From assembly GCA_964016885.1 (NCBI GenBank), contig OZ024740.1:262570001-262634000 (forward strand): a DNA stretch of 64,000 nucleotides, given 5' to 3'. Positions within the stretch are counted from its first letter, which is position 1. Each line of letters begins with the position of its first letter. Position numbers and translations under genes: made by a program. The DNA comes from Eledone cirrhosa (taxonomy: Eukaryota). Below are positions 9,256 through 57,559 of this stretch, in pieces. The notes under the pieces were generated by a model. The model did not search any database and had not been told where the DNA came from. It worked only from the letters and a program-made list of their open reading frames with translations.

Positions 9256-9351
9256 CACACACACATTTCTCTCTCCCCCCCTCTCTCTCCCTCTCCCCCT
9301 CTCTCTCTCTCTATATATATATACTAAGAAAGATACTAGGTGGACCATAAC

Positions 9352-9505
9352 GCACCAGACTACTCGATATTTGGGGTAGTAGAGTGGGCAAATTGAAAAG
9401 ATTCAAGACCCGATTGCTGAGCTCCGGCAATTTCGACAGCTAGATCAGTTCGGATCTGGCTGTCGAAACGACCGGAGCTCAGCCGACGGTGTCCTGAATG
9501 TTTTC
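9352..9505. repeat. Imperfect palindromic element (two inverted hammerhead-like arms) next to (TA)n
   Basis: GCTGAGCTCCGG...CCGGAGCTCAGC and TTTCGACAGCTAGATC...GATCTGGCTGTCGAAA are inverted pairs; a related copy is at 52284. Confidence 0.8.
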
Positions 9506-9525
9506 ATATATATATATATATATAT

Positions 9526-10031
9526 ATTAGAATTGGTGCTCTGAATTAGCGATATATATATGAATGTATATATAGTGTATTTTGCAATACACTGTATGCT
9601 TAATTAAAAGCATTTCGAAGACCATACGCTATTGTTTTAGAGTAGTGACAGACTCACTTACTTTAAATTTTTAGCAAACAGGGGAGATAAAGCTGACAGA
9701 GCTCTGTTTCGTACTGATTGGTACTTATCAAAGCCAAGTACTCCACCTGTTTGCTGAAAATCATGAATGTTTGATTCTTATAGAATTCTAGTAATAATCA
9801 GGAACTGATTATACAGAGCGGTTGCCGGTCAGGGAGAAATTGAAAATTAGAATTGGTGCTCTGAAATAGCGATATATATATGAATGTATATATAGTGTAT
9901 TTTGCAATACACTGTATGCTTAATTAAAAGCATTTCGAAGACCTTACGCTATTGTTTTAGAGTAGTGACAGACTCACTTACTTTAAATTTTCAGCAAACA
10001 GGGAATACACTATATATAAATATTTTTCATA
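9526..10031 (-). repeat. ~320-bp hammerhead-containing tandem repeat (retrozyme-like): about 1.5 units plus a short inverted tail
   Basis: Unit start ATTAGAATTGGTGCTCTGAA at 9526 and 9846; same family at 55766-56603. Confidence 0.88.
9668..9760 (-). ncRNA. Type I hammerhead ribozyme, U3-A8 core variant
   Basis: Minus strand 9735-9691 reads GGCT-TTGATAA-GTAC caatca GTAC-GAAA-CAGAGCTCTG-TC-AGCT. Helix I is extended by GGAG/CTCC and AGCAAACAGG/CCTGTTTGCT. Confidence 0.82.
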
Positions 10032-10189
10032 TGTAAACGTGACTTTCTCGGGCGTGTTTTCTCTTTGGGAAAAAAAGCACGTGATCGCCAGTTTTTTACT
10101 GTAACGCTTCACATCCTTTCGGGTCACAGAATGGAAGCCTGTTGATAACGTGAGTCCACGGTTTGGTCATCGAATACCACAAACTTGCA

Positions 10190-10935
10190 TACATCAAGTA
10201 GCTCATAGAAACATTCCTCCTTAACCACTGACCGTTGTATTGTGGGTCCATAGACACTGATAAATGTGAGATAGGAGTTGTTTTTCAGTTGAATTCGAGC
10301 AGTCTCTCAGAAATAGAAACTGGATTGATGTGACCAAATTTATTAGACACAGCAAATCCAACCCCAGCTGTTTTGTCATAATTTCCGCAACAAAAGATAG
10401 TATGGCTCCTCTCTTTGATGTTACCAGATCCTGGATGCTGTATTTCACTCAAGGCACAAATATCAATACCTGTTTTTTCGATCCAACTGCAGATAATAGC
10501 TGTAGCGCTTTCAGGCCTGAGAGAGTTTGTATCATCATTAGTAGTCCGAACATTCCAGGCTGCTAGATTAAGCATTTGCCTCTCTTTCTTAGAAGATCTG
10601 TTGTTTATTGAAATTGAATTTTCATAGGTTACTCCGAAAGCAATAGAACTATATGGACTTTGCTCATTTTCCCCCACCTATAAAAAGTGGCGCATTGGTT
10701 ACCTCGTACACAGTATCACTAGGGGAATATTCAGTGTTACTCATCTCATAAAAAGTAGGTTGCGCCAAAAGATGACGATGCTGACCAGCGCACTGCAGCA
10801 TCCCTTGGCAAGATGCCCTGGAAACTGGTGGCACAGCAAAACTGAGACAGACGCAGGAGAATCATTTCGCAGGTACCATTTTCCCGTGAGCTGGGGTAGG
10901 GATTGGTATAACGCCAGGGCATACAGTCTCTCCCC
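10190..10935 (-). mobile_element. RTE-like LINE 5' fragment (APE endonuclease N-terminus plus putative 5' UTR), degraded
   Basis: LAAWNVRT...IDICALSE...AGVGFAVS motifs in ORF 10285..10677 and a VYGPT motif in a shifted frame. Confidence 0.75.
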
Positions 10936-18270: not shown

Positions 18271-21200
18271 GGCGACCTACGTAGTAAATCGTATTATCGT
18301 GAGCTCCGCAAAATTTGTTATTTTCAGTTGTTTAAAATTGCCATTTATGGAAAATCTTTATTGTTAACTGTATATAAGTGCACATACATTGTTTTCTGAA
18401 AAGGACAGTCAAAAAGATTGGGGCCTTGTGCCCAAAATTTAAATTTTTATAATTATCAAAAAAATTTCTTTGAAAAATCATGGCCGACTCACAGCTGCAC
18501 CAAGCAGCTGAGAGCCTTCCTCACAAACTAACACCTTACACCGAGACCACCATTGTAAATATTACTACGTTTGCCAACAATAAAAATATAAGCAGCAGCA
18601 ATATTTTAAATTTGTCTCAGGCAGACATTCATTTCCCGCAATTACCAATGACTGCAGGTGTTAAAGCCGCCACCCCCACTACCATCACCACTGCGACAAC
18701 AGAAACAAAAGAAAAAAATAAATTAACTCGTGATATCGAAATGAATTCAACCAAAATGAACTATTCCACACCGAACACCACTGACGCCACCACAACTGAA
18801 ACTAAAATTAATAATAACAAAAATAACGATAACAACAACAGCAACAATGAAATTAAGAAAACTACCCTGTCTTTTGCGAGAATAGCAAAAACGTGCGAAG
18901 CGCTCCAGATAACTCAGGAGGAATTAGAAGAAGCCAAATGAATGGTAAAGAAAGATGGGTACAGGGTCAGCCCCCCCCCCCCACAAACACACATAATAAA
19001 ATGGAGCATCGTCGCTTATGCACCGTGTCTTATCGGACAATTAACATAAAATCGCGCCATGTGGAACGGGCATCCTAGTCCCAAACCCAAAACGCTTTGG
19101 GACATGTGTGGGCAACAAAAACCCACATCAGACGTGGGCAGAAATATGGAACCGTGGACGTGTTCTTTGAAACACCACAGGAGGCCAGAGAACACTCCAT
19201 GGCCCCATTAAGAAGTGACGACTTCACACTCGTCCCAAGCTATGGTGGCCTGAGACTCGTGATCATCAGGGTGACCCACGTTCCACCGGCCATCGAAATT
19301 CCCTGGCTAATGGCTGCGTCCTCGCCGGCATCGAGGCCAACACCAAGATAATCGAAATAGCGAAAGAAAAGCAGGAGAACTGGTCCGGATTTGGGATGGA
19401 GCTCCTGATCCAAGCGGATCATAAAAACATTGAGCAGATCCCAGAGGTAATAGACCTCACTGACGGCAGCCACCTCACCGTAATCGTCGAGGGCAGAAGG
19501 CCTAGGTGTGTCGTTTGTGGTGAAGGAACCCACCCAAGAGCTTTCTGCCCTCAGGCTAAAAGGTTGAGGCCACCTCTCTTACCCACCCCAGTGACTCAAC
19601 CATCAAAACTGCCAGCAGCAGGGATGGCAGCAACAACTGTAGCAGCAACAACAGAGGCAACTGTAACAGCAACAACCGCAGCAACAGTAGCAAAACCAAC
19701 ACCACCACCACCCAACGCGCCATAACTAGCACCATCGCCTATACCATCCACCACGCCACAACCAAAACTAATACCTGCGGAGGATTTTCCACTCCCCGGC
19801 TTATCGCAACTGGAGACAGATTGTGACGACGAGTAGTGGGAATCGGTATCAGTAAAAAAGAAAAAAAGAAACCAAAAAAGAAAAAAAATACTCTTCCTTC
19901 CTCCTCCAAAAGCAAAATACAGAGGGAAACAAATAAACTATCAAACAAAAAGTTAGGACAGATATGCCACCATCCACACCAGCATCACCAACCCCATCAC
20001 CACAAACACCAACACCATCACCATCATTAACTCCAACACCACCATCACCAACACCACAAAAATCACCAAAAAGCGAAACAGAAACAAACCATAACAAACG
20101 CAGACAAAACAAAACAACCAAAACGATACACACTACAGAGCATTAAATTTGAACAACAACCAATTATTACACTACATCCAACAAAACACCAGCATCACAG
20201 AAAAAGACTACACAACAACCCAAAAGTTCACACCACCTCCACACATACAAATCACTCGCATCACACAGAAAACGTACACGACACTAAAACAAAAATTCCC
20301 CAAAGACATCGGAGACTTCCGACAAACACTCTCCAGGAGGATTTATAAGGACATCCTTCCGGAAGAGGCCACAAGCAGTGAAAAGGATGGACAAACCATC
20401 CTTCTACGAGAAGTAAGGTAAGTGGTCTTTCCCATCTTTTCCACTCCATTTCAACATGATCTCACTCATAATAGGCAGCATAAATGCGCGTGTCTTGTGG
20501 TCGTTATGGAAGCTGGGCCACCTGCTCAACGACCTCAGGTCACTAAACATAGATGTAGTGGCCATCAGCGAGACCAGAATCTCCGAAGCACGGGCCTTCG
20601 CACCAATCTTAGGCGGCTACGATGTGTACGCATCTCCCAGCCGTCCGGGATCGGGGGAGTGGGGGAGTTGCTGTGCTTTTTCGGAGAAGTTTGGATCTCG
20701 CCATACGGGCCATCTTCCTGGACCCAGAAGGTAAGTTGGTGGTGCTAGACGTGACCAGCGGAGACGGGCAATCTTTCAGGCTAGTGGCCGTCTATGCCCC
20801 AACAGGAGCAGGGCGGCCTGATTTCTTTCGGCGTATGTAGACCTTTCTTGGATCGTCCGCTCTTTAGTGTTAGTGGGCGACTGGAACGGGATCTTAGATG
20901 CACGCTGGGACTGTGTGGGCTTAACGGATAGGAGAGGAGGGTGCAAGAGCCTCACCATCCTGCTAAGGCGTTTTGAACTGACTGACAGGTACCGATTGGA
21001 TTTCCCGAATGTGCCAATGTGGACTTGGACAAATCGCATAGGGTCATCCAGATCATATCTAGATAGAGTATTTTGTAAGGAAATAGATAGGTCTAGCATA
21101 GGCTGTCCACAATTCAAGATAGTCAGCTACACGGACCACAAATTCGTGATATGTGTGCTTGACTTAGATAGGCTTCATAGACGAGGACCCAGCTACTGGA

Positions 21201-23554
21201 AGCTAAACGCGTCCTTTCCAGCGCGCAAGGCCTACAGAGACCAGATTAGCGAACTAGTTAAGCGGGCGTTGACGGGGGCCTTCGTCAACAGCAAGTGGTG
21301 GTTTGCTCTAAAAAGAGCAATTAGAATAGAGTCCATTAGATTTAGTAAGGCTTTATCAATAGAGCAAAATAGAGCAGAGGGAGAATTAGTTACATGCCAG
21401 ACTAGTTCGGAGGCCTCTTGGCGGACGTCTACTGCAACTGGCAACAGAACGGGAGGATCCGATCAAGGGGGATAACATAGATAATTTTAGGCCCATAACT
21501 CTGCTAAACACAGAGTTCAAGATTTTGGCCAAGGTGCTAGCAATTAGGTTGGCGCTTGTCGTTGGTGGTCTGGTGGGAGAGGCGCAGACATGCACCATTC
21601 CAGAAATTTCCAGCCACGACAACCTACACCTCATGCGATACATCGTAGAGAGGGTAGCTAGGGAACCTGGCACGGGTGGGTCCTTGATCAATTTAGATCA
21701 GTCGAAACCATTAGATAGGGTCGACCATCTTTACCTAGCGGCATCCTGAGGGCGGCTGGCTTTGGGCCCGTCTTTAGAGGCTGGATCGCAGCGACATCTG
21801 CTCTGTGGTGAGAGTGAACGGTCACCTTTCGGAACCGTTCAACATCATGCGCTCGGTCCGCCAAGGATGTCCCCTCTCGTCCCTCTTGTACATATTGACT
21901 CTCGAGCCATTACTGCACAAACTGGAGAAGTTCAGGGAGGTCCCGCGCGAACTAGGATGCGGAAAATCCGTGTCAGCATATGCGGACGATGTCACCGTAG
22001 TGGTGTCGAACGCCAAACACATCGAGGCGATCGGCACTACACTAAGAGAATACGAAGCGGTGACAGCAGCAATGATCAACCAGGAAAAGTCAGTGGGCCT
22101 GCAGCTCGGCACCTGGAGAGGAAGGTCCATGCCGTCCAACAGCGTCGTCGGGCGCTGGATGGACGGACCGGTTAAATTGCTCAGGGTCTGGTTCGGTCCG
22201 GACCTCCAGACGGACAAAAACTCGGACGAGGTGACGAGCAGGGTGGGTTCTGTCACCCAGAAATGGGCGGAGAGGAAGCTATCCTTGAAAGGTCGAGCGG
22301 AGGTGGCTAACGCGTACATCGCGTCCGTCATCTACTACCGCCTGACCGTTGTACCTTGTCCTAAGCCCCGCCTGACTGCGCTGGAGCGTTTGTTCTTTCG
22401 CTTTTTGTGGAAGGGACGCGCTCCGATGGAGGGCTGGAGCATGCCGTGGCTGATGATGCGCAGACACGCGCTCAGGCTACGACATCTCCACCTCTTCCTC
22501 GAGAGTGATCAGGTGTGGTCGCCGTTTGCTAGACACGTCTTTCCCCAGCTCGTCTCCTTGACGGAGCTGCAGTCCTGGGTCAAGCGAAGACCGAGAGGGA
22601 GCGCTTGGAGACTGGAATGTCTTCAGGCGCTCACAGCCCTCGACCAATCGGGCAATGTGATCGGTGGAAACTCCACCTTGGCGTTCTATAGAGGATTACT
22701 GGAGGGGAAGAGCGACGACGTACTTGGAGAAAATCTAGGCGTCGACGAAAATCAACTAGCCAATCTCTTCGGAAGGACTTTCCGGCCAGGGCCTATGGAC
22801 AACTTCCAGAAATCCCTGGCCTGGCAGTGCTATCGGGGTGCTTTGCCAGTTTGGGATAAACTCTACAGGCATGGAGGTGCCGTCAGCCGGGCATGTCCGA
22901 GATGCGCGCAGGGCGACGAAACCGTCCTGCACGCACTCGTCCAGTGTCCGAGCATTGCTGACTTGTGGGTTTATGTCGAACACCTGCTGTTACGTGCAGG
23001 ACGGATCCAGCTATCAGCTGAGTCCATCGTGAGGATTGCCCCGCCCCCTTCCTTTAGCCGGGAAGGGCACGCAATTTTTATCTGTCTGGTGGCCATGGCG
23101 AAAGAGATAGTATGATGGACACGTTTGAAAGGTCTGAAGACGAGCACGTACCTCTTCGGTGATGCCCTGATTAACTTTTTCAAATTTCATTTGAAAAGGA
23201 AAATCAGGGTAGAGAGGGAAGTGCTCTCTTCCCAGCATTTTGTTGAAAGATGGGTGAGAGAAGCAAGTATGGCCCGAGTGAATGGGCCTACTCTGAGTAT
23301 GTGTCTGTAAATTAAAGGTGGAAAACTGGGAGAGGGCACTTGCCCTGGTGGTTAGGGCCACTGTGGTCTTTTAATGGGCTTTCTCCACAAATGTCCCTCG
23401 GAAGTCTCCCCACTATTGGGGAATTTTTCTTTGTTATTTTATTTCAACCTCTGTTTTTTTTACACGCAGAAATGCCCATTTGTACCGGCCTGTATTGTCC
23501 TGTACTGTCCTTAATGTCTACTTTATGTAAACCCTTGTGGTTAATAAAGAAAAC
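18271..23554 (+). mobile_element. Tx1 LINE copy B, both termini present, degraded (ORF1 type 2)
   Basis: Starts GGCGACCTACGTAG after (TAT)n. ORF1 (18480-20421) and ORF2 (20456-23310) carry stops, frameshifts and deletions (large one near 21390). AATAAA plus (ATT)n tail. Confidence 0.95.
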
Positions 23555-23572
23555 ATTATTATTATTATTATA

Positions 23573-23617
<45 letters not shown>

Positions 23618-26600
23618 GGCGACCTACGTAGGAAATCGTATTATCGTGAGCTCCGCAAAGGTTTGTTATTTCCGTTTGTTTAAAAATTGCCATTTATGGA
23701 AAATGTTATTGTAAACTGTTTATAAGCACACATACATTGTTTTCCGAAGAGGACACCCAAAAAGATTGGGGCCTTGTGCCCAAAATTTTAACTTTTACTA
23801 TTATCAAAAAATTTCTTTGAAAAAATGGCTAATTCACCTCTACAACAAGGAGCTGAAAGCCTTCCTCACAAATTAACACCTCACACCGACACCACCATTG
23901 TAAATGTTACTACGTTTGCCAACACAAAAAAAAAATATAAGCAGTAGCAATATTTTAAATTTGTCTCAGGCAGACATTCATTTCCCGCCATTACCAATGA
24001 CTGCAGGTGTTTAACCCTCCACCACCACCACCACCGCGACAACAGAAACAAAAGAAGAAAAAAATAAATTAACTCGTGACGTCGAAATGAAATCAAGCAA
24101 AATGGACTCTTCCCCACCAAAGACGACTGACGTCACCACCACCACAACTGAAAATAAAATTAATATTAACGATAGCAACAACAACAACAATGACATTATA
24201 AAACCGACCCTCAGTTTCGCCATCGTAGCAAAACAATTCGAAGCGTTCACGGTAACTCAAGAAGATTTAGAAAATGCCAAACAAATGGTAAAGAAAGATG
24301 GGTACAGGGTCAGCCTCACCCCCCACCTAATAAAATGGAGCATCGGCGCCTGTGCACCGTGTCGTATAGAACAATAAATGTAAAATCGCGCCGAGTGGAA
24401 CGGGCATCCGAGTCCCAAATCCAAAAAGCTTTGGGACATGTGTGGGCAAGAAAAACCCACATCAGACGTGGGCAAAAGTATGGAACCGTGGATGTGTTCT
24501 TTGAAACACCAGAGGAGGCTAGAGAACACTCCATGGCCCCATTAAAAAGTGACGACCTCACACTCTTCCCAAGCTATTGTGGCCAGAGACTCGTAAAGAT
24601 CAGGGTGACCCACGTTCCACCGGCCATCGAAATTCCCTGGCTAATAGCGGCTGTCCTCGCCGGCATCGAAGCCAACACGAAAATAATAGCAGTAGCAAAA
24701 GAAAAGCAGGAAAACTGGTCCGGATCTGGGATGGAGCTCCTGATCCAAGCGGACCAAAAAAGCATTGAGGAGATCCCAGAGGTAATAGACCTCACTGACG
24801 GCAGCCACCTCACGGTAATTGTCGAGGGCAGAAGACCTAGGTGTGTCGTTTGTGGTGAAGGAACCCACCTAAGGGCTTTCTGCCCTCAGGCTAAAAGGTT
24901 GAGGCCACCTCTCCTGCCCACCCCAGTGACACAACCATCAACACCACCAGTAGCAGAAATGGCAGCAACAACTGTAGCAGCAACAACAGAAGCAACTATA
25001 ACAGCAACAACTCCAGCAACAGTAGCAAAACCAACACCACTACCACCACCAGCAAAACCAACACCACCACCACCCAACGCTTCAGAACTAGCACCAGCGC
25101 CTACACCATCCACCACACCACAACCAAAACTAACGGCTGTGGAGGATTTTCCACTTCCCGGCCTATCACAACTGGAGACAGATTGTGACGACGAGGAGTG
25201 GGAAACGATATCCGGAAAAAAAAAAGAAACCAAAAAAGAAAAAATTCTCTTCCTTCCCCCTCCAAAAACAAAATACAGAGGGAAACAAATAAACTAAGAA
25301 ACAAAAAAGTTAGGACAGATATGCCACCATCCACACCAGCATCACCAACCCCATCAACCCAAACACCAGCACCATCACCATCATTATCCCCAGCACCACC
25401 ATCACCTACACCACAAAAGTCACCAAAAAGCGAAACAAACAAACCCACAACAAACGCAAACAAAACAAAACAACCAAAACGATACACACTACACAGCATT
25501 AAATTTGAACAACAAGCAATTATTACACTACGTCCAACACAACACCAGCATCACAGAAAAAGACTACACAACAACCCCAAAATTCACACCACCTCCACAC
25601 ATACAAATCACTCGCATCACACAGAAAACGTACATGACACTAAAACAAAAATTCCCCAAAGACATCGGAGACTTCCGACAAGCACTCTCCAGGAGGATTT
25701 ATAAGGACATCCTTCCTGAGGAGGCCACAAGCAGTGAAAAGGATGGAAAAGCCGTCCTTCCCCTACGAGAAGTAAGGTAAGTGGTCTTTCCCATCTTTTC
25801 CACTCCTTTTCAACATGACCTCACTCAGAATAGGCAGCATAAATGCGCGTGGCTTGGGGTCATCATGGAAGCAGGGACACCTGCTCAACGACCTCAGGTC
25901 ACTAAACATAGATGTAGTGGCCATCAGCGAGACCAGAATCTCCGAAGCACAGGCTTTCGCACCGATCTTCGGCGGCTACGATGTGTACGCATCTGCCAGC
26001 CGTCCTGGATCGGGGGGAGGAGTTGCTGTGCTTTTTCGGAGAGGTTTGGATCTTGCCATACGGGCCATCTTCCTGGACCCAGAAGGTAAGTTGGTGGTGC
26101 TGGACGTGACCAGCGGAGACGGGCAAGCTTTCAGGTTAGTGGCCGTCTATGCCCCGACAGGAGCAGGGCGGCCTGATTTCTTCCGGCGTCTGGAGACCTT
26201 TCTTGGAACGTCCCGCTCTTTAGTGTTAGTGGGCGACTGGAACGGGATCTTAGATGCACGCTGGGATTGTGTGAGATTAGTGGATAGGGAAGGAGGGTGC
26301 AAGAGTCTCACCAACCTGCCCAGACGTTTTGAACTGTCTGACAGGTACCGAATGGATTTCCCGAATGTACCAATGTGGACTTGGACAAATCGCATAGGGT
26401 CATCCAGATCATATCTAGATAGAGTATTTTGTAGGGAAATAGATAGGTCTAGCATAGGCTGTCCACAATTCAAGATAGTCAGCTACACGGACTACAAAAT
26501 CGTGATCTGTGTGCTTGACTTAGATAGGCTTCATAGACGAGGACCCGGCTACTGGAAGCTAAACGCGTCCTTACCAGCGCGCAAGGCCTACAGAGACCGG

Positions 26601-29458
26601 ATTAGCGAACTAGTTAAGCGGGCGTTGACGGGGGCCATCGTCAACAACAAGTGGTGGTTTGCTCTGAAAAGAGCAATTAGAATAGAGTCCATTAGGTTTA
26701 GTAAGACTTTAGCAATAGAGAAAAATAGAGCAGAGGGAGAATTAGAAAATTAGATGAGGCGCTTAGCAAAGGCATCGCGACCGACGTACTTGCGGCGAAA
26801 TTGGCCCTTGACCAATTCTTCAATGCAAAGCACGAAGGCTGCGTTGTCAGAGCTAGGGTGCGTGCTCTCAGACACGAGGGGACGAAAGCCGTTCAATGGG
26901 CCCGAGTGGCGGAGGCGCGTCGTGGCAACAAAGCCACGATCCGGTCTTTGGTGGACCACGACGGGCGCATGCTACTCGATCCCGGGCAAATGTGTGAAGC
27001 TTTTCAGCGACACTTCGGGGGCAGTGGCGGGCCGGATCGAGGGATGGACTTTAGTGTCTACCTCGACGGACTGCCGCGGCTTTCGGCCACTGAGGCGGAG
27101 TGTTGCGAAAAGCCGATAACAACCGCTGAAGTACGGGATGCAATGACTAGTTGCACAAGGGGTAAATCGCCTGGTTTGGATGGTCTGCCCTATGAACTTT
27201 ACGTACAAATGCCAAACTTGTTCGGAGGCCTCTTGGCGGACGTCTACTGCAACTGGCAACAGAACGGGAGAATTCCCAGCTCTGTGAGCCGAGGAGCGGT
27301 GGCGCTGCTGAGAAAGGATCCGAACAAGGGGGATAACATAGATAATTTTAGGCCCATAACTCTGCTAAACACAGAGTTCAAGATTTTGGCCAAGGTGCTA
27401 GCAAAGAGGTTGGCGCTTGTCGTTGGTGGTCTGGTGGGAGAGGCGCAGACATGCGCCATTCCCGACAGATCCATCCACGACAACCTCCACCTCATGCGAT
27501 ACATCGTAGAGAGGGTAGCTAGGGAACCTGGCACGGGTGGGTCTTTGATCAATTTAGATCAGTCGAAAGCCTTCGATAGGGTCGACCATCATTACCTAGC
27601 GGCAGTCCTGAGGGCGGCTGGCTTTGAGCCCGTCTTCAGAGGCTGGATCGCTGCCATGCACAGCGACATCTGCTCTGTAGTGAGAGTGAACGGTCACCTT
27701 TCGGAACCGTTCAACATCATGCGCTCGGTCCGCCAAGGATGTCCCCTCTCGTCCCTATTGTACGTATTGACTCTCGAGCCATTACTGCACAAACTGGAGA
27801 CGTTGAGGGGGGTCCCGCGCGAACTAGGATGCGGAAGATCCGTGTCAGCATATGCCGACGATGTCACCGTAGTGGTGTCGAACGCCAAACACATCGAGGC
27901 GATCGGCACTACACTAAGAGAATACGAAGCGGTGACAGGAGCAATGATCAACCAGGAAAAGTCTGTGGGCCTGCAGCTCGGCACCTGGAGAGGCAGGTCC
28001 ATGCCGTCCAACAGCGTCGTCGGGCGCTGGATGGACGGACCGGTTAAATTGCTAGGGGTCTGGTTCGGTCCAGACCTCCAGACGGACAAAAACTGGGACG
28101 AGGTGACGAGCAGGGTGGCTTCTCTCACCCAGTAATGGGCCGAGAGGAAGCTATCCCTGAAAGGTCGAGCGGAGGTGGCGAATGCGTACATCGCATCCGT
28201 CATCTACTACCGCCTGACCGTCGTACCTTGTCCTAAGCCCCGCCTGACTGCGCTGGAGCGTTTGCTCTTTCGCTTCTTGTGGAAGGGACGCGCTCCGATG
28301 GTCAGGCGGTCCATCTGCTGTCAACACCCGCTACGTGGAGGGCTGGGCATGCCGTGGCTGATGATGCGCAGACACGCGCTCAGGCTACGACATCTCCACC
28401 TCTTCCTCGACGGTGATCAGGTGTGGTCGCCGTTTGCAAGACACGTTTTTCCCCAGCTCGTCTCCTTGACGGAGCTGCAGTCCTGGGTCAAGCGAAGACC
28501 GAGAGGGAGCGCTTGGAGACTGGAATGTCTTCAGGCGCTCACAGCCCTCGGCCAATCGGGCAATGTGATCGGTGGAAACTCCACCTTGGCGTTCTATAGG
28601 GGATTAGTGGAGGGGAAGAGCGACGACGTACTTGGAGAAACTCTAGGCGTCGACGAAAATCAACTAGCCAATCTCTTCGGAAGGACTTTCGGGCCGGGGC
28701 CTATGGACAACTTCCAGAAATCCCTGGCCTGGCAGTGCTACCGAGGAGCTTTGCCAGTTCGGGATAAACTCTACAGGCATGGAGGTGCCGTCAGCCGGGC
28801 ATGTCCGAGATGCGCGCAGGGCGACGAAACCGTCCTGCACGCACTCGTCCAGTGTCCGAGCATTGCTCACTTGTGGGTTTATGTCGAACACCTGCTGTCA
28901 CGTGTAGGACCTATCCAGCTATCAGCTGAGTCCATCGTGAGGATTGCCCCGCCCCCTTCCTTTAGCCTGGAAGGGCAGGCAGTTTTTATCTGTCTGGTGG
29001 CCATGGCGAAAGAGATAGTATGGTGGACACGTTTGAAAGGGCTGAAGACGAGCACTTACCTCTTCGGTGATGCCCTGATTAACTTTTTCAAATTTCATTT
29101 GAAAAGGAAAATCAGGGTAGAGAAGGAAGTGCTCTCTTCCCACCATTTTGTTGAAAGATGGGTGAGAGAAGCAAGTATGGCCCGAATGAATGGGCCTTCT
29201 CTGAGTATGTGTCTGTAAATTAAAGGTGGAAAACTGGGAGAGGGCACTTGCCCTGGTGGTCAGGGCCACTGTGGTCTTTTAATGGGCTTTCTCCACAAAT
29301 GTCCCTTGGAAGTCTCCCCCTATTGGGGAATTTTTCTTTGTTATTTTATTTCAACCTATGTTTTTTTACACGCAGAAATGCCCATTTGTACCGTCCTGTA
29401 TTGTCCTGTACTGTCCTTAATGTCTACTTTATGTGAACCCTTGTGGTTAATAAAGAAA

Positions 29459-29460
<2 letters not shown>
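23618..29460 (+). mobile_element. Tx1 LINE copy C, full-length, mildly degraded (ORF1 type 2)
   Basis: Same 5' end as B. ORF1 23825-25780 is frameshifted; ORF2 25815-29218 has a frameshift near 26745 and a stop at 28133. Confidence 0.96.
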
Positions 29461-29511
<51 letters not shown>

Positions 29512-29724
29512 GAATGCCATGGTTGACGGAGGCTCGGCTCTGTAAGGTATAGTAATTTTTAACCGTTAAAACAATTGTAAATTGTTTAAAACTTGAACCA
29601 AATTGTTGATAAAGACACCCTCCTCCTCGTGAGAGGGGTCTTTCTGTCCGTTATTTGGCCCTTCGGGGTTAAATAGCCAGTTATTGGGGTTTTGTACCCA
29701 AAATTTCATTTTAAACAAAAAAAC

Positions 29725-31824
29725 ATGGCTACCAAAAAAAAAAAATTTCATACGTCACTCCCACTCATTCCGTCTTCTTCTTCCTCAATCATCACTACAG
29801 GAGAGAGAAGATTGTCTCTCTCCCTCCCTTCTTTAAATGTGTCTCTCTCCCTACCTTCTCTTTCGCAAGCGACGAAAGAAAAGAAAAGTCTCGTGCAAAG
29901 CGTGCAAGGTTTCTCCACGACGACGACGACAGCGACGAAACAGGTGTGCGGGAAATACGAAAACCCAGTTCATTCGTCTGACGTCAGGAATAATAGCAGT
30001 AGCAGCCGTAATAACAACAGCAACAGTGACAATGAAAACAACAGTAGCAGCCGCAACAGCATCACCAGCAGCATAAACAACAACAGCATTAGCAGCAGCA
30101 ACACCAACAACAACCACAGCAACAGCGGCGGAGGCAGTAGTCGTAGTACCTGCAGCAACAACAAAAGTACCAGCAGCTCTGACGACAACAACAACAGCAG
30201 AGAAAAACCAATCTCATTTGCAGGTATTGCGAAAAACCTGGAAACAATCCTCATAACAAATGAGGAATTAGAGGAAGCGAAGAAGATGGTGACAAAGAAC
30301 GGACACCGAGCAATCTGCAAGGCAGCGAAAAATTTTTTCGAAACCCAAGAGCACTGTACGGTCACGTACCGTACAGTAAGTACAAAATCCCGTAGGGTGG
30401 AAAGAGCCACAGAGGCCCAAATACAAAAAGCCTTGGGGTCTGTGTGGCAGAGGAAAACGCACATCACCCGAGGCAAAAAATACGCCACCGTAGACGTACT
30501 TTTTGCCACACCCCAGGAGGCAAAGGCCCAATCAGTAGTGACCCTAAGGAGCGAGGAAATGGTGTTGGTGCCCTCCTACTGCGGGCAAAAAATTGTGAGG
30601 GTCAAACTGACCCACGTCCCCCCCGGAATGACCCCTTCTTGGCTGGCCGCGTCTGTCCTCGTCGGAATCGAGGACAAAACAACTGTACTGCAAGTACAGA
30701 AAAAAGTAAGAGAAGATTGGGTCGGCTCCTCCATTGAGATGCTAATCCAAACCAACCAGGAGTGCATCGAAGCTATCCCGGATGTGATAGACTTCGATAA
30801 CGGCACTCAACTGCCCATAAGTGTTGAGGGCAAACGCCCGAAATGCTTTCGCTGTGGATCGAAGACTCACCTCAGGGCCTTCTGCAACGAGAAGACCCTG
30901 AGAAAGGAGAAAACCCCCCTCCTCCCGAATCCGGTTCCACGGCTACCAGCAACAGGACAAGCGGCAACCAGGAACGATAGGTCCGTGGCACCCATACCCA
31001 CTCCACGGAAATCAAAGACAGCAGCAGCAGTGGAAATATTAACAACAACAACAGCAATACCAAATGCAGCTGCAACAGAGACTCCAGTGCAAACATCACC
31101 AACAACAACAAGTGAAAGAGTGGAGCTGGTACCCCTCCCCGACCTTACAGAATCAGACATGGAGTGTGAGGTGGGAGAGGGATGGCAAAAGGTCTCAAGA
31201 AGGCACAAACGCAGAAGCAGCGCATCGTCGCCTTTGAAAAGGGAGGAAAGAAATGAGAAAAGGGTAAAGTCTACTGCAAAGAGACCCACAGCAGCAACAC
31301 CACCAACACCATCACCACCCACACCAGCACCACCATCACCACCGGCGACAACCCCACCGCCAACAACACCTTCAACACCACCACCACAAGCACCAACATC
31401 GCAAACACAACAACAAAACACACACACCCAGCAACAACGACAAGAAAATAGCAGAACCACACCCCACCCCCAGAAAAACAAATGCACGGCAATAAACACA
31501 CACAACAAGAAACTAATGACTTACATAATTGAACACACAGACATTTCACAACAGGACTACATAATACCAGCACCAATCAAAACGCCAACTAACATAAGAC
31601 TGCTAAAAATAGCACAGAAACAATACACAAACATTAAAACGAAATTCCCCAACGCAGTTGGTGATTTCAGGGACCTAGGAGGAACCATTAATCGAAGAGT
31701 ATATTCAGACATTCTCTTAGAAGAGCCGACGACCAGCCGAAGGGACGATTCAACGGTCCCTTCACCAGACGATCAAGTGAAAAGGGATGTAAAAACCATC
31801 CCTCCTCTACCAAAAATACGGTAA
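29725..31824 (+). CDS. Tx1 ORF1 nucleic-acid-binding protein (~699 aa): S/N-rich N-terminus, CCHC knuckle, P/T-rich linker, conserved C-terminal domain
   Basis: Open frame 29692..31824, first ATG at 29725; CFRCGSKTHLRAFC. Confidence 0.9.
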   Translation: MATKKKKFHTSLPLIPSSSSSIITTGERRLSLSLPSLNVSLSLPSLSQATKEKKSLVQSVQGFSTTTTTATKQVCGKYENPVHSSDVRNNSSSSRNNNSNSDNENNSSSRNSITSSINNNSISSSNTNNNHSNSGGGSSRSTCSNNKSTSSSDDNNNSREKPISFAGIAKNLETILITNEELEEAKKMVTKNGHRAICKAAKNFFETQEHCTVTYRTVSTKSRRVERATEAQIQKALGSVWQRKTHITRGKKYATVDVLFATPQEAKAQSVVTLRSEEMVLVPSYCGQKIVRVKLTHVPPGMTPSWLAASVLVGIEDKTTVLQVQKKVREDWVGSSIEMLIQTNQECIEAIPDVIDFDNGTQLPISVEGKRPKCFRCGSKTHLRAFCNEKTLRKEKTPLLPNPVPRLPATGQAATRNDRSVAPIPTPRKSKTAAAVEILTTTTAIPNAAATETPVQTSPTTTSERVELVPLPDLTESDMECEVGEGWQKVSRRHKRRSSASSPLKREERNEKRVKSTAKRPTAATPPTPSPPTPAPPSPPATTPPPTTPSTPPPQAPTSQTQQQNTHTQQQRQENSRTTPHPQKNKCTAINTHNKKLMTYIIEHTDISQQDYIIPAPIKTPTNIRLLKIAQKQYTNIKTKFPNAVGDFRDLGGTINRRVYSDILLEEPTTSRRDDSTVPSPDDQVKRDVKTIPPLPKIR

Positions 31825-31859
31825 GTGGTCTTTCCCATCTTTTCCACTCTATTTTAAAC

Positions 31860-34800
31860 ATGACCTCACTCAGAATAGGCAGCATAAATGCGCGTGGCTT
31901 GGGGTCGTCATGGAAGCAGGGTCACCTGCTCAACGACCTCAGGTCACTAAACATAGATGTAGTGGCCATCAGCGAGACCAGAATCTCCGAAGCACGGGCC
32001 TTCGCACCGATCTTCGGCGGCTACGATGTGTACGCATCTCCCAGCCGTCCTGGATCGGGTGGAGGAGTTGCTGTGCTTTTTCGGAGAGGTTTGGATCTCG
32101 CCATACGGGCCATCTTCCTGGACCCAGAGGGTAAGCTGGTGGTGCTGGACGTGACCAGCGGAGACGGGCAAGCTTTCAGGCTAGTGGCCGTCTATGCCCC
32201 GACAGGAGCAGGGCGGCCTGATTTCTTCCGGCGTCTGGAGACCTTTCTTGGAACGTCGCGCTCTTTAGTGTTAGTGGGCGACTGGAACGGGATCTTAGAT
32301 GCACGCTGGGACTGTGTGGGATTAGCGGATAGGGGTGGAGGGTGCAAGAGCCTCACCAACCTGCTCAGGCGTTTTGAACTGTCTGACAGGTACCGATTGG
32401 ATTTCCCGAATGTGCCAATGTGGACTTGGACAAACCGCATAGGGTCATCCAGATCATATCTAGATAGAGTATTTTGTAGGGAAATAGATAGGTCTAGCAT
32501 AGGCTGTCCACAATTCAAGATAGTCAGCTACACGGACCACAAATTCGTGATCTGTGTGCTTGACTTAGATAGGCTTCATAGACGAGGACCCGGCTACTGG
32601 AAGCTAAACGCGTCCTTACCAGCGCGCAAGGCCTACAGAGACCGGATTAGCGAACTAGTTAAGCGGGCGTTGACGGGGGCCATCGTCAACAACAAGTGGT
32701 GGTTTGCTCTGAAAAGAGCGATTAGAATAGAATCGATTAGGTTTAGTAAGGCTTTAGCAATAGAGAAAAATAGAGCAGAGGGAGAACTAGTTAGAAAATT
32801 AGACGAGGCGCTTAGCAAAGGCATTGCGACCGACGTGCTTGCGGCGAAATTGGCCCTTGACCAATTCTTCAATGCAAAGCACGAAGGCTGCGTTGTCAGA
32901 GCTAGGGTGCGTGCTCTCAGACACGAGGGGACGAAAGCCGTTCAATGGGCCCGAGTGGCGGAGGCGCGTCGTGGCAACAAAGCCACGATCCGGTCTTTGG
33001 TGGACCACGACGGGCGCATGCTACTCGATCCCGGGCAAATGTGTGAAGCTTTTCAGCGACACTTCGCTCAGCTGTTCGGGGGCAGCGGGGGGCCGGGTAG
33101 AGGGATGGACTTTAGTGTCTACCTCGACGGACTGCCGCGGCTCTCGGCCACTGAGGCGAAGTGTTGCGAAAAGCCGATAACAGCCGCTGAAGTAAGGGAG
33201 GCAATGACTGGCTGCACAAGGGGTAAATCGCCTGGTTTGGATGGTCTGCCCTATGAACTTTACGTACAGATGCCAGACTTGTTCGGAGGCCTCTTGGCGG
33301 ACGTCTACTGCAACTGGCAACAGAACGGGAGAATTCCCAGTTCTGTGAGCCGAGGAGCGGTGGCACTGCTGAGAAAGGATCCGAACAAGGGGGATAACAT
33401 AGACAATTTCCGGCCCATAACTCTGCTAAACACAGAGTTTAAGATTTTGGCCAAGGTGCTAGCAAAGAGGTTGGCGCTTGTCGTTGGTGGTCTGGTGGGA
33501 GAGGCGCAGACATGCGCCATTCCCGACAGATCCATCCACGACAACCTCCACCTCATGCGATACATCGTAGAGAGGGTAGCTAGGGAACCTGGCACGGGTG
33601 GGTCCTTGATCAATTTAGATCAGTCGAAAGCTTTCGATAGGGTCGACCATCGTTACCTAGCGGCAGTCCTGAGGGCGGCTGGCTTTGGGCCCGTCTTCAG
33701 AGGCTGGATCGCTGCCATGCACAGCGACATCTGCTCTGTGGTGAGAGTGAACGGTCACCTGTCGGAACCGTTCAACATCATGCGCTCGGTCCGCCAAGGA
33801 TGTCCCCTCTCGTCCCTCTTGTACGTATTGACTCTCGAGCCATTACTGCACAAACTGGAGACGTTGAGGGGAGTCCCGCGCGAACTAGGATGCGGAAGAT
33901 CCGTGTCAGCATATGCGGACGATGTCACCGTAGTGGTGTCGAACGCCAAACACATCGAGGCGATCGGCACTACACTAAGAGAATACGAAGCGGTGACAGG
34001 AGCAATGATCAACCAGGAAAAGTCAGTGGGCCTGCAGCTCGGCACCTGGAGAGGCAGGTCCATGCCGTCCAACAGCGTCGTCGGGCGCTGGACGGACGGA
34101 CCGGTTAAATTGCTAGGGGTCTGGTTCGGTCCGGACCTCCAGACGGACAAAAACTGGGACGAGGTGACGAGCAGGGTGGCTTCTCTCACCCAGAAATGGG
34201 CGGAGAGGAAGCTATCCCTGAAAGGTCGAGCGGAGGTGGCTAACGCGTACATCGCGTCTGTCATCTGCTACCGCCTAACCGTCGTACCTTGTCCTAAGCC
34301 TCGCCTGACTGCGCTGGAGCGTTTGCTCTTTCGCTTTTTGTGGAAGGGACGTGCTCCGATGGTCAGGCGGTCCATCTGTTGTCAACACCCGCTACGTGGA
34401 GGGCTGGGCATGCCGTGGCTGATGATGCGCAGGCACGCGCTCAGGCTACGACATCTCCACCTCTTCCTCGACGGTGATCAGGTGTGGTCGCCGTTTGCTA
34501 GACGCGTTTTTCCCCAGCTCGTTTCCTTGACGGAGCTGCAGTCCTGGGTCAAGCGAAGACCGAGAGGGAGCGCCTGGAGACTGGAATGTCTTCAGGCGCT
34601 CACAGCCCTCGACCAATCGGGCAATGTGATCGGTGGAAACTCCACCTCGGCGTTCTATAGAGGATTAGTGGAGGGGAAGAGCGACGACGTACTTGGGGAA
34701 ACTCTAGGCGTCGACGAAAATCAACTAGCCAATCTCTTCGGAAGAACCTTCGGGCCAGGGCCTATGGACAACTTCCAGAAATCTCTGGCCTGGCAGTGCT

Positions 34801-35279
34801 ACCGAGGAGCCTTGCCAGTTCGGGATAAACTCTACAGGCATGGAGGTGCCGTCAGCCGGGCATGTCCGAGATGCGCGCAGGGCGACGAAACCGTCCTGCA
34901 CGCACTCGTCCAGTGTCCGAAAATTGCTGACTTGTGGGTTTATGTCGAACACCTGCTGTCGCGTTTAGGACGGATCCAGCTATCATCTGAGTCTATCGTG
35001 AGGATTGCCCCGCCCTCCTCCTTTAGCCGGGAAGGGCAGGCAGTTTTTATCTGTCTGGTGGCCATGGCGAAAGAGATAGTATGGTGGACACGTTTGAAAG
35101 GGCTGAAGACGAGCACTTACCTCTTCGGTGATGCTCTGATTGACTTTTTCAAATTTCATTTGAAAAGGAAAATCAGAGTAGAGAAGGAAGTGCTCTCTTC
35201 CCAGCATTTTGTTGAAAGATGGGTGAGAGAAGCAAGAATGGCCCGAGTGAATGGGCCGACTCTGAGTATATATCTGTAA
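31860..35279 (+). CDS. Tx1/L1 ORF2: APE endonuclease, reverse transcriptase and C-terminal zinc-binding domain (1139 aa)
   Basis: INARG, SETR, GDWN, YLDR, TDH; LDQSKAFDRVDH, RQGCPLS, YADD; CPRC...ETVLHALVQC. All intact. Confidence 0.97.
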   Translation: MTSLRIGSINARGLGSSWKQGHLLNDLRSLNIDVVAISETRISEARAFAPIFGGYDVYASPSRPGSGGGVAVLFRRGLDLAIRAIFLDPEGKLVVLDVTSGDGQAFRLVAVYAPTGAGRPDFFRRLETFLGTSRSLVLVGDWNGILDARWDCVGLADRGGGCKSLTNLLRRFELSDRYRLDFPNVPMWTWTNRIGSSRSYLDRVFCREIDRSSIGCPQFKIVSYTDHKFVICVLDLDRLHRRGPGYWKLNASLPARKAYRDRISELVKRALTGAIVNNKWWFALKRAIRIESIRFSKALAIEKNRAEGELVRKLDEALSKGIATDVLAAKLALDQFFNAKHEGCVVRARVRALRHEGTKAVQWARVAEARRGNKATIRSLVDHDGRMLLDPGQMCEAFQRHFAQLFGGSGGPGRGMDFSVYLDGLPRLSATEAKCCEKPITAAEVREAMTGCTRGKSPGLDGLPYELYVQMPDLFGGLLADVYCNWQQNGRIPSSVSRGAVALLRKDPNKGDNIDNFRPITLLNTEFKILAKVLAKRLALVVGGLVGEAQTCAIPDRSIHDNLHLMRYIVERVAREPGTGGSLINLDQSKAFDRVDHRYLAAVLRAAGFGPVFRGWIAAMHSDICSVVRVNGHLSEPFNIMRSVRQGCPLSSLLYVLTLEPLLHKLETLRGVPRELGCGRSVSAYADDVTVVVSNAKHIEAIGTTLREYEAVTGAMINQEKSVGLQLGTWRGRSMPSNSVVGRWTDGPVKLLGVWFGPDLQTDKNWDEVTSRVASLTQKWAERKLSLKGRAEVANAYIASVICYRLTVVPCPKPRLTALERLLFRFLWKGRAPMVRRSICCQHPLRGGLGMPWLMMRRHALRLRHLHLFLDGDQVWSPFARRVFPQLVSLTELQSWVKRRPRGSAWRLECLQALTALDQSGNVIGGNSTSAFYRGLVEGKSDDVLGETLGVDENQLANLFGRTFGPGPMDNFQKSLAWQCYRGALPVRDKLYRHGGAVSRACPRCAQGDETVLHALVQCPKIADLWVYVEHLLSRLGRIQLSSESIVRIAPPSSFSREGQAVFICLVAMAKEIVWWTRLKGLKTSTYLFGDALIDFFKFHLKRKIRVEKEVLSSQHFVERWVREARMARVNGPTLSIYL

Positions 35280-35540
35280 ACTAAAGGTGGAAAACTGGGA
35301 GAGGGCACTTGCCTTGGTGGTCAGGGTCATTGTGGCTTTTTACTGGGCTTTCTCCACAAATGTCCCTCCGAAGTCTCCCCCCTATTGGGGAATTTTTCAT
35401 TGTTATTTTCATTGTTATTTTTGTTACATCCTCTATTTTTGTTTTTTTTACACGCAGAAATGCCCATTTGTACCGTCCTGCATTGTCCTGCACTGTCCTT
35501 AATGTCTACTTTATGTAAACCCTTGTGGTTAATAAAGAAA

Positions 35541-45400: not shown

Positions 45401-46539
45401 TCTTGCGACCTTTTGCCATCCCTCTCTCACCTCCCACTCCATGTCCGATCCAGTGAGGTCGGGGAGGGGTACCAGCTCCACCCTTTCACTTGTTCTTGTT
45501 GGTGATGGTTGCAGTGGAGTCTCTGTTGCAGCTGCAGTTGGTATTAATCTTGTTGTTGATACTTCCACTGCTGCTGCTGTTCTTGATTTCCGTGGCGTGG
45601 GTATGGGTGCCTCGGACCTATCCTTCCTGCTTGCCGCCAGTCCTGTTGCTGGTAACAGTGGAGCCGGTTTCGGAATGAGAGGGGTTTTCTCCTTTCTCAG
45701 GGTCTTCTCATTGCAGAAGACCCTGAGTTGAGTCTTCGACCCATAGCGAAAGAATTTCGAGCGTTTGCCCTCAACACTTATGGGAAGATGAGTGCCGTTA
45801 TCGAAGTCTATCACATCCGGGATAGCTTCGATGCACTCCTGGTTGGTTTGTTAATTCAATTCGGCGCCTCCATTAAGATGTTAGTCATCTTAATGGAGGC
45901 GCCGACCCAATCTTCTCGTACTTTATTCTGTACTTGCAGTACAGTTGTTTTGTCCTCTATTCTGACGAGGACAGACGCAGCCAGCCAAGAAGGGGCCATC
46001 CCGGAGGGGGGAGGACTTCGGTCAATTTGACCCTCACAATTTTTTGCCCGCAGTAGGAGGGCACCAACACCATTTTCTCGCTCCTTAGGGTTACTAAGGA
46101 TTGAGCCTTTGCCTCCTGGGGTGTGGCAAAAAGCATGTCCACGGTGGCACATTTCTTGCCTCGGGTGATATACTTTTTCTACCGCCACACAGGCCCTAAG
46201 GCTTTTTGTATTTGAGCCTATGTGGCTCTTTCAACCCTACGTGACTTTGTGCTTACTGTACGTTACGTGACCGTTGGGTTTCGAAAACTTCTTCGGCTGC
46301 CTTGCAGATTGCTCTGTGTCCGGTTTTCGTCACCATCTTCCTTGCTTCCCGTAATTCCGCATTTGTTATAAGGATGGTTTCCAGGTTCTTTGCGATACCT
46401 GAAAAACGAGACTGGTTTTTCTTTCTTGTTGTTGTTGTCGTCAGAGCTGCTGCTACTTTTTTTGTTGCTGCTGGTGCTACGACACCGCCACCACTGTTGC
46501 TGTTGTTGTTGTTGTTGTTGTTGTTGCTGCTGCTTTTGT

Positions 46540-46570
<31 letters not shown>

Positions 46571-52184: not shown

Positions 52185-52518
<334 letters not shown>

Positions 52519-55355: not shown

Positions 55356-55498
<143 letters not shown>

Positions 55499-55694
55499 AG
55501 AAAAACCACAGACCCTCCATCTCAACTCTACTTTTGAAAAGCAGAAGAACTGCGAAACCGGTAAAGGAACCAAATAAATATATATGTATTTTTAAAACAA
55601 TAAGACGTTGCATTTTCGATTTCATCTTTTTTTCTTGATATTTTTACTCATGTAGGACACCTCGGTTATTTTTCATTTTGTAAAAAAACCTCAC

Positions 55695-55771
<77 letters not shown>

Positions 55772-55913
55772 TGTATATATATATGAATGTATATATAGTG
55801 TATTTTGCAATACACTGTATGCTTAATTAAAAGCATTTCGAAGACCTTATGCTATTGTTTTAGAGTAGTAACAGTCTCACTTACTTCAAATTTTCAGCAA
55901 ACAGCATAGATAA

Positions 55914-55958
55914 AGCTGACAGAGTTATGTTTCGTACTGATTGGTACTTATCAAAGCC
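55914..55958 (-). ncRNA. Hammerhead ribozyme, U3-A8 variant (helix III partly mutated)
   Basis: GGCT-TTGATAA-GTACCAATCAGTAC-GAAA-CATAACTCTG-TC-AGCT. Confidence 0.7.
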
Positions 55959-56236
55959 ACGTACTCCACCTGTTTGCTGAAAATCATGAATGTTTGATTC
56001 TTATAGAATTTCTAGTAATAATCAGCAACTGATTATACAGAGCGGTTGCCGGTCAAGCAGAAATTGAAAATTAGAATTGGCGCTCTGAAATAGCGATATA
56101 TATATATGAATCTATATATAGTGTATTTTGCAATACACTGTATGCTTAATTAAAAGCATTTCGAAGACCTTATGCTATTGTTTTAGAGTAGTGACAGTCT
56201 CACTTACTTTAAATATTCAGCAAACAGGGGAGATAA

Positions 56237-56281
56237 AGCTGACAGAGCTATGTTTCGTACTGATTGGTACTTATCAAAGCC
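56237..56281 (-). ncRNA. Hammerhead ribozyme, U3-A8 variant
   Basis: GGCT-TTGATAA-GTACCAATCAGTAC-GAAA-CATAGCTCTG-TC-AGCT with an intact helix I extension. Confidence 0.75.
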
Positions 56282-56390
56282 AAGTACTCCACCTGTTTGC
56301 TGAAAATTATGAATGTTTGATTCCCCTGTTTGCTGATTATTACTAGTAATTCTATAAGAATCAAACATTCATGATTTTCAGCAAGTACTT

Positions 56391-56435
56391 GGCTTTGATA
56401 AGTACCAATCAGTACAAAACATAGCTCTGTCAGCT
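56391..56435 (+). pseudogene. Inactivated hammerhead copy (G12 to A)
   Basis: GAAA is replaced by AAAA and the helix I extension carries a deletion. Confidence 0.7.
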
Positions 56436-57559
56436 TTATGTCCCCTGTTTGCTGAACATTTAAAGTAAGTGAGACTGTCACTACTCTAAAACAATAGCAT
56501 AAGGTCTTCGAAATGCTTTTAATTAAGCATACAGTGTATTGCAAAGTACACTATATATATACCTTCATATATATATATCGCTATTTCAGAGCCCCATTTC
56601 TAACATATGCATATATAGGCTTGGCAACTTGTTGGTATAAGACGTGAATTGTCGTCTCTCCAGATTTAATTGTCGTCTCTCCAGATTTAATATATTAAAT
56701 CGACAGTAATCGGATTTATGTATGGTTTTAATTTTTCAGAAAACAAGGAAAACATACAAAAAAGATAAGTTTTTGTGCTTTGACGCAATTATTTTGAAGT
56801 ATATTTTACATATATTACCGTTTTAAACGTGTTTATTTTCACTGTGTGATACCTTCCTAGGAGACAACACACACACGTGCGTTCTATTTTTCTTGACTAC
56901 CATACAGAGCATACGTAATCTAATTTTAGTTTAACTTAAACAGATCTTGTATTATTTTGATTTTTCTGAGTAACATAATTTAATTTAATATAATCTTGTT
57001 TAATTTGGTATAATCTCATCTGTTTTTGACTCGGTTTTGTTGTTTCTTGTTTGATATGTTGATATTACAATAACTTCGTATATTTGTAAACAAACATTTA
57101 GATTCAACTTATATACAACTTACATCGTATTTCTATATCTCTATGATTCCGGTTTCTTCCATTCATTAATTTAATTTAAAATTTATTTTATATTTATGAA
57201 CTACTATTGCTCACACTGTCTCTATCTCTCTCCTTCCTTCCTCTCTCTCTCTCTCTCCCTCTCTCTCTCTCTCTAGATCAACGAGCTCTCTCTCTCCCTC
57301 TCCCTCTCTCTCCCTCACTCTCTATATATATATCCTCTCTCTCCCTCTGACCTCCCCCCTACTCTTCCCGCTATCTCTCTCGCTCCCCTCTTCTGTCTCT
57401 CCCCCTTTTCTTTTCTTTTCTTCTGTTTCTCTTTCTTTTTCTCGCTGGAGTTATATTTATCTCACTGGTGTTATATCTATATCTCCCTCCCTCCCTCTGT
57501 CCCTCTCTAACCTCTACCCTACACTTCCCACTGTCTCTCTTTCTCCCCTCCTCAGCGAA

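Follow-up and report, generated by a model that had tools for sequence, protein, structure and literature searches.

Family A, a repeat family represented at positions 9526–10003 of the window (the whole 64-kb stretch of DNA that was analyzed), is a dispersed, non-coding tandem family in which each 320-bp unit carries a single type I hammerhead motif with a U3-A8 core. By sequence criteria it belongs to the animal non-LTR retrozymes: the tandem unit lies within the range of 150–450 bp, each unit contains one type I hammerhead, and many dispersed copies were observed. In addition, we consider it likely that this non-LTR retrozyme has been moved by Neptune-type Penelope-like retrotransposons, which probably copied a circular RNA.

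Structure of the Unit and Its Hammerhead

The locus consists of one 320-bp unit (9845 to 9526) preceded by a 158-bp partial unit (10003 to 9846), and the following features were assigned.

9526..9845, minus strand: full 320-bp retrozyme unit of family A; 34% GC; six differences to the majority sequence built from 50 full units
9846..10003, minus strand: 5'-truncated upstream partial, unit positions 163–320; 98% identical to the full unit, without hammerhead
10004..10018, plus strand: 15-nt inverted match to unit positions 265–279; probable vestigial second (head-to-head) arm
9691..9735, minus strand: U3-A8 hammerhead of type I; the cut is predicted 3' of C17 (9695/9694)
9668..9760, minus strand: distal extension of helix I; 9760–9741 pairs with 9686–9668 around a UAC-containing internal loop, and the pairing covaries across sister families
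9526..9551, minus strand: optional 26-nt 3' tail between two fixed 3' ends; the 9526–9845 copy ends at the long site
9552..9562, minus strand: internal AT tract forming the short 3' end site, unit positions 284–294
9506..9525, no strand: (TA)n target tract at the 3' end of the element

The longest ATG frame on the closed 320-bp unit (GC 34%) is 33 aa, and the unit folds much better than its shuffled versions (z -5.66, 0/100). The original prediction had extended the locus to 10031. Only one hammerhead was found there, in the full unit and not in the partial, so that the locus is no tandem pair, and past 10003 only the 15 nt at 10004–10018 match the unit, with the remainder to 10031 unmatched. 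On the basis of their inverted match, these 15 nt are probably a tiny second arm. Because it has a single hammerhead, 9526–10003 is unable to release a monomer alone; two consecutive complete hammerheads, by which Li et al. (bioRxiv 10.64898/2026.07.22.740005) call a copy "active," were absent at 9526–10003 and present at L132, L137, L146, and L216–L221.

Several other repeats lie nearby. An abundant short repeat with a long internal hairpin (9331–9505, plus strand) stands tail-to-tail with the 9526–10003 element on the shared (TA)n tract; a related copy was observed near 52294–52463, the repeat lies across the TA tract in 11 of 159 family-A arms, and no standard hammerhead was seen in it. A broken LINE-type endonuclease fragment at 10096–10677 on the minus strand (Pfam Exo_endo_phos, E 0.005, below the cut-off) is an unrelated neighbor. 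Tandem LINE copies cluster at ~18400–35300 and 43000–47900 of the window and include an intact 1,195-aa endonuclease-RT-zf-RVT frame at 31692–35279; these copies are presumably Tx1-like.

All of the elements originally proposed for the hammerhead at 9735–9691 (minus strand) were recovered by direct reading and a descriptor scan, namely helix I GGCU/AGCU, the core UUGAUAA, helix II GUAC-CAAUCA-GUAC, GAAA, the palindromic helix III CAGAGCUCUG, and GUC. The features of the type I class are present, with a conserved core and an NUH triplet around three helices and with helix I open, and U3-A8 replaces C3-G8. The proposed continuation of helix I beyond an internal loop was also borne out by an extension of ~14–15 bp in the 9526–9845 copy, whose UAC bulge and CAA..A loop we take to resemble the tertiary contact of the Schistosoma hammerhead. 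A generic descriptor scan of the 64-kb window gave three matches (9735–9691, 55958–55914, and 56281–56237), all of which belong to family A.

In contrast to the descriptor scan, an Rfam search of the whole window at E<=1 returned no hammerhead match. A search of six loci with hammerhead models, as had been suggested, gave weak matches to Hammerhead_HH9 and none at or above the gathering score of 52: the 9691–9735 copy scored 17.8 bits (E 5.4), and a U3-A8 sister family scored 30.4 bits (E 4.9e-4). The canonical-core family of the same genome was also sub-threshold (29.1 vs. 34 for Hammerhead_1). Because they score below the Rfam thresholds, U3-A8 hammerheads are undercounted by surveys.

The window contains a second family-A locus, consisting of two arms beside a Penelope fragment.

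55775..56323, minus strand: left arm, unit positions 69–320 followed by 1–294, short end; hammerheads 56281–56237 and 55958–55914
56330..56603, plus strand: inverted right arm, unit positions 42–319, long end; core 56391–56435
55495..55707, plus strand: 3'-terminal fragment of an autonomous Neptune-type Penelope element, across a (TA)n tract from the second locus

The helix III palindrome is broken in the 55958–55914 copy, and the core at 56391–56435 (plus strand) keeps UUGAUAA with G12 changed to A and GAAA changed to AAAA. The two arms obey the long-plus-short pairing described below. The Neptune fragment has its own minimal U3-A8 hammerhead (~55530–55567), and another Neptune-type fragment was observed at 53585–53707. 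Thus, the four cores of the window do all read UUGAUAA, as had been noted, including the one without G12; however, the argument against decay that was built on this agreement did not hold, because the sharing reflects common descent only. The actual evidence against decay comes from covariation across the sister families.

Genome-Wide Copies and the 3-8 Core Pair

A DNA search of the 3.0-Gb genome returned 2,476 candidates for family A, of which 40 were scored; the dispersed copies number in the hundreds to thousands and differ by ~2.7% from the majority sequence. Among 441 copies collected by the 25-mer context of family A, 434 had U3-A8, position 3 was changed in five, position 8 was changed in two, and C3-G8 was not observed. 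This collection upheld the predicted linkage of U3 and A8, and since the family consensus is U3-A8, a CUGAUGA consensus from which U3 and A8 arose independently was not what we found. Taken together with the hundreds to thousands of dispersed copies and the absence of any frame beyond 33 aa, this consensus agrees with the original description of a non-coding, mobile, hammerhead-bearing tandem family.

A sister family that is ~76% identical to family A (314-bp unit, 2,715 candidates) has a C3-G8 core, and further sister families vary in all three helices. A pattern for the superfamily gave 8,715 exact matches genome-wide, and the reversed-pattern control gave none. U3-A8 was present in 4,527 of these matches and mixed states in 154 (C3-A8 in 82 and U3-G8 in 72); by subtraction, 4,034 were C3-G8, a number that includes an unrelated canonical-core family accounting for 23 of the first 100 pattern rows. 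U3-A8 cores can therefore account for roughly half of the hammerheads that a single pattern picks up in one genome (4,527/8,715). These genome-wide counts reflect a few founder lineages rather than thousands of independent events. At L208, L222, L223, L227, and L228, we observed an abundant, unrelated family whose hammerhead is of the canonical CUGAUGA form; it ends on (TA)n, has an AT-rich region upstream, and often occurs as inverted pairs 1–5 kb apart.

We addressed covariation in 27 representative sequences, which are related lineages rather than independent ones and were chosen by a pattern in which the core and portions of helices I and III are fixed, with mixed-state singletons left out. 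Under the specified structure, 92.7% of the cells pair, and 18 of the 30 pairs change on both sides, including 4/4 pairs of helix II and 9/15 of the outer stem. None of 500 shuffles reached the observed values, and slid controls were at most 47% paired. These results indicated that helices I–III and the outer stem covary across sister families and, on this comparative evidence, that U3-A8 is a compensated, inherited form of the C3-G8 pair and not decay. One sister family also provides a six-unit array (L216–L221; G000:C1:6519938-6521557), in which 316-bp U3-A8 units lie between (TA)n tracts. The units differ from one another by 0–1 nt, and the comparisons with 18–19 differences involve a slice running into the flank; the array is very young and a good substrate for a cleavage test.

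Ends and Pairing of the Inserted Arms

The insertions were mapped in 196 family-A segments from 113 loci, taken from the best DNA matches and the first-listed pattern matches; this set favors hammerhead-bearing copies and the first two chromosomes, and it excludes sister-family loci, Penelope loci, and segments below 90% identity. In 159 of the 196 segments, the end fell in one of two windows (unit positions 284–296 and 316–325), which together span 7% of the unit; (TA)n adjoins 130 of these canonical ends. The 5' ends were scattered; a cluster of 5' ends near unit position 160 was set aside as probably an artifact of an inverted stem. Head-to-head joining to another family-A arm was observed for 102 of the 159 arms. 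In particular, among 65 head-to-head joints, both outer ends were canonical in 40, and 35 of these 40 combined a long end with a short one (binomial p 1.4e-6). Any target-site duplication would be masked, because the insertion ends sit in (TA)n.

Family A therefore has the Penelope-type features of two fixed 3' ends, a one-sided tail, 5' truncation, an inverted arm, and a microsatellite target. Partial tandems, an inverted 5'-truncated copy, a tail at one end only, and AT-rich targets have been described for Penelope elements (bioRxiv 2021.04.23.441226; PMC11167929), and two internal start sites of reverse transcription are reported to explain the Penelope tail in vitro (PMC11167929). Judged by these structures, the insertion pattern of family A matches the Penelope signature, which the earlier reading had missed.

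Read-Through and the Template

More than one unit was present in 83 of the 159 arms, more than two in seven, and more than three in two, with the longest arm reaching 3.2 units. The upstream cleavage site was passed in 28 of 29 cases and was the stopping point once. Successive units within one arm share 64 derived changes, compared with 16 expected (maximum 32 in 1,000 permutations), and they agree at 138 of 148 polymorphic-site comparisons, compared with 78 expected. The shared variants, the agreement between units, and the near-identical six-unit array indicate that one template molecule or lineage was copied repeatedly. A circle would be the simplest reading of this template, although the shared variants and the read-through are also compatible with linear multimers that come uncut from a single source locus.

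Candidate Penelope Partners

A genome-wide search returned 10,596 GIY-YIG candidates, and the 50 loci examined represent at least five families. A near-complete element (L061:2273-8001) has a 938-aa RT and GIY-YIG frame between repeats 4,979 bp apart; we call it Neptune-type, as its Cys-rich linker before the nuclease fits the description of Neptune/Nematis (bioRxiv 10.1101/2021.04.23.441226). Autonomous elements of the Neptune type are abundant; two of their families possess U3-A8 hammerheads and terminate at (TA)n, and the hammerhead of the L061 element is a minimal U3-A8 form.

At two places (L148/L168 and L181), a family-A arm meets a Neptune arm directly in head-to-head orientation; the Neptune arm is 5'-truncated, and each of the two outer ends lies on (TA)n. 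These two mixed joints compare with 84 retrozyme–retrozyme joints, Neptune sequence constitutes 4% of the flank DNA, and 29 further Neptune loci yielded no mixed joint; thus, we regard the mixed joints as only a suggestive pointer to a Neptune partner. Because the second Neptune family had 34 long ends, 13 other ends, and no short end, we did not extend the long-plus-short rule to the mixed joints. A third candidate joint (L137/L169) was not counted, being a multi-part rearrangement in which a two-unit family-A arm and an inverted Neptune coding stretch were observed, with a further sister-family array across the terminal TA tract.

Comparison of the 320-bp unit with the 3' regions of four Neptune families gave only AT-tract matches, with scores slightly above those of shuffles. 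These scores were not accepted as pLTR homology, a judgment that covers these four 3' regions. No RT and GIY-YIG frame was found in, or routinely beside, the 320-bp unit. A same-strand pair 4.5 kb apart, considered as a possible autonomous copy, proved to be a segmental duplication. The repeat beside a GIY-YIG frame at L032, considered as a possible pLTR, is instead an insertion of the C3-G8 sister family in the terminal TA tract of that element, and 0 of 29 other loci of this sister family had attached coding sequence.

As a tentative idea, which we regard as possible but less likely than not, a Neptune RT dimer might prime both ends of a (TA)n break at different start sites and roll round circular retrozyme RNA; its halves could load different RNAs, and the mixed insertions would then be fossils naming the enzyme that moves the retrozyme. 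If this is true, the U3-A8 pair common to the retrozyme and two Neptune families would indicate either ribozyme exchange or a common origin.

Predicted Folding and Activity

The lowest energy predicted for the ribozyme region belongs to an inactive alternative fold in which GGCUUUG pairs with CAGAGCU; here the helix III sequence is engaged by the 5' side of helix I together with the beginning of the core. At 9526–10003, the hammerhead fold lies 3.1 kcal/mol above this alternative in secondary-structure energy without tertiary contacts; across the 27 relatives, the cost ranges from 0.5 to 14 kcal/mol, again with tertiary contacts not counted. The palindromic helix III is predicted to form a 12-bp intermolecular duplex (-20.1 kcal/mol), similar to the intermolecular helix III of dimeric hammerheads. 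Unit position 142, in helix III, is polymorphic in family A (G 107, U 57, C 11, A 3), and the U form weakens the predicted self-duplex from -20.1 to -7.3 kcal/mol, yet it was amplified as a subfamily.

Selection of U3-A8 to weaken the inhibitory fold was considered and rejected as a general cause: the swap worsened 11 of 17 U3-A8 rows, improved six, and would improve nine of ten C3-G8 rows. For family A itself, however, the inhibitory fold is weaker with U3-A8 (3.1 vs. 5.9 kcal/mol). A candidate off-switch helix was 90.5% paired, with weak covariation (5/500 shuffles) and with pairing partly forced by invariant bases. Retrozymes of coral, mussel, and axolotl are reported to cleave (PMC7229834).

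Proposed Mechanism and Alternatives

In the mechanism that we favor, multi-unit transcripts would self-cleave at GUC, probably as helix III dimers or with the assistance of a protein, and the monomer would be ligated into a ~320-nt circle, by analogy with other retrozymes. A Penelope GIY-YIG nuclease would then cut (TA)n DNA, and RT would start at one of two internal sites separated by ~26–34 nt; the pair of fixed ends and the TA targeting are observed in the insertions, and the enzyme is the presumed one. The RT would travel around the template for up to several turns past the cleavage site and fall off randomly, with the read-through visible in the arms and the circle presumed. Both DNA ends would often be primed, one per start site, which may be how the observed head-to-head arms, long-ended on one side and short-ended on the other, were produced.

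The same Penelope-mobilized element might instead be copied from an uncut linear multimer, with a hammerhead that works weakly, depends on a protein, or serves only for the trimming of transcripts. Such a template would suit the inactive fold being the predicted minimum and the 5' ends not piling up at the cleavage site; moreover, the Anolis Penelope element is reported to insert without needing hammerhead cleavage, with unprocessed RNA as its main substrate (PMC11167929), and only 1/9 of the predicted Xenopus retrozyme dimers was reported to cleave in vitro, whereas 8/9 did not (bioRxiv 10.64898/2026.07.22.740005). We consider a linear template rather unlikely, because random 5' truncation should shorten the arrays in each round if nothing regenerated them, and yet 83 of 159 arms are longer than one unit; in addition, the six-unit sister array is nearly identical, and compensatory change keeps the core and the helices.

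Two further explanations concern the origin of the repeat and its route of spread. That the 320-bp repeat is a detached pseudo-LTR of an autonomous Penelope family outside the sample appears very unlikely: the unit closes on itself in tandem, no coding sequence is common to the flanks of 30 loci, Penelope coding matches lie beside few family-A loci and then as chimeric joints or across TA tracts, the pair spaced by 4.5 kb is a segmental duplication, and no homology to the four Neptune 3' regions was found. These observations have to be set against the presence of all Penelope end signatures, the examination of only 50 of the 10,596 GIY-YIG candidates, and the retrozyme–pLTR homology reported in Xenopus by Li et al. 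(bioRxiv 10.64898/2026.07.22.740005). Spread by another route, either driven by LINE machinery or taking place through duplication of a satellite or hairpin element at the DNA level, in both cases with an incidental hammerhead, would draw on a window rich in LINE-type RT and endonuclease frames and on a unit that strongly forms hairpins; however, the two internal fixed 3' ends, the long-plus-short pairing, and copies longer than a unit are those described for Penelope elements, and the hammerhead covaries, so we find this route hardly credible.

Comparison with Known Systems

The U3-A8 variant, the element class, and the link between retrozymes and Penelope elements are already in print. The novelty that the original prediction attached to U3-A8 was overrated, since natural U3-A8 cores were already described by Perreault et al. 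(2011, PMC3088659) and, in Penelope elements, by Cervera and De la Pena (2014, PMC4209133). The hammerheads of these two reports have the same 3-8 covariation as family A and are described as natural and active in vitro, and ~1,300 U3-A8 matches in Schistosoma Penelope repeats are given there. The Penelope examples described in these sources are minimal motifs, whereas in family A helix II has 4 bp, helix III is full, helix I continues into a long extension, and the motif is part of a retrozyme unit.

The metazoan non-LTR retrozymes of coral, mussel, and axolotl (Cervera and de la Pena 2020, PMC7229834) are, like family A, non-coding, low-GC tandem repeats of 150–450 bp units, each with a type I hammerhead and a short palindromic helix III, and they share strong self-pairing and coexistence with Penelope elements. 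In contrast to the retrozymes described there, family A has a U3-A8 core, and most of its copies are head-to-head insertions in (TA)n that comprise 1–2 units and have two fixed ends; the main text of that report never uses the word "inverted." Cleavage and circles were demonstrated in that study and are predicted for family A.

Li, Clavereau, and Pollet (2026, bioRxiv 10.64898/2026.07.22.740005) proposed that Penelope machinery moves retrozymes, and the unit sizes and co-occurrence that they describe are similar to those of family A. Their evidence, as presented in the preprint, is co-occurrence and pLTR homology, whereas that for family A is insertion anatomy and two mixed-arm joints, with no pLTR homology found. 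Neptune-type Penelope elements (Craig et al. 2021, bioRxiv 10.1101/2021.04.23.441226; Frangieh et al. 2024, PMC11167929) share with family A partial tandems, 5' truncation, an inverted copy, a one-end tail, insertion into (TA)n or AT-rich DNA, a pair of internal start sites, and a hammerhead in the repeat. Unlike these elements, family A is without a reading frame, its tail is 26–34 nt, and its unit is not homologous to the sampled Neptune ends.

Our literature searches found no publication describing family A, although subscription journals and supplements could hold one. In the cited literature, copying of animal retrozymes into genomes is proposed and not demonstrated, and family A offers mapped start sites, the long-plus-short rule, read-through evidence, and candidate Neptune partners in the same genome. 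With its ends mapped and candidate partners at hand, family A opens the mobilization model to a direct test by the in vitro assay already published for Penelope.

At the base of helix II, the C3-G8 sister family has a U-U mismatch like that described for the axolotl HHR_Amex2 (PMC7229834). Penelope hammerheads in which a U-U mismatch closes helix II were also observed in the second Neptune family (L032, L031, L078, and L168) and in another family (L060 and L064), with a core that is either U3-A8 or C3-G8.
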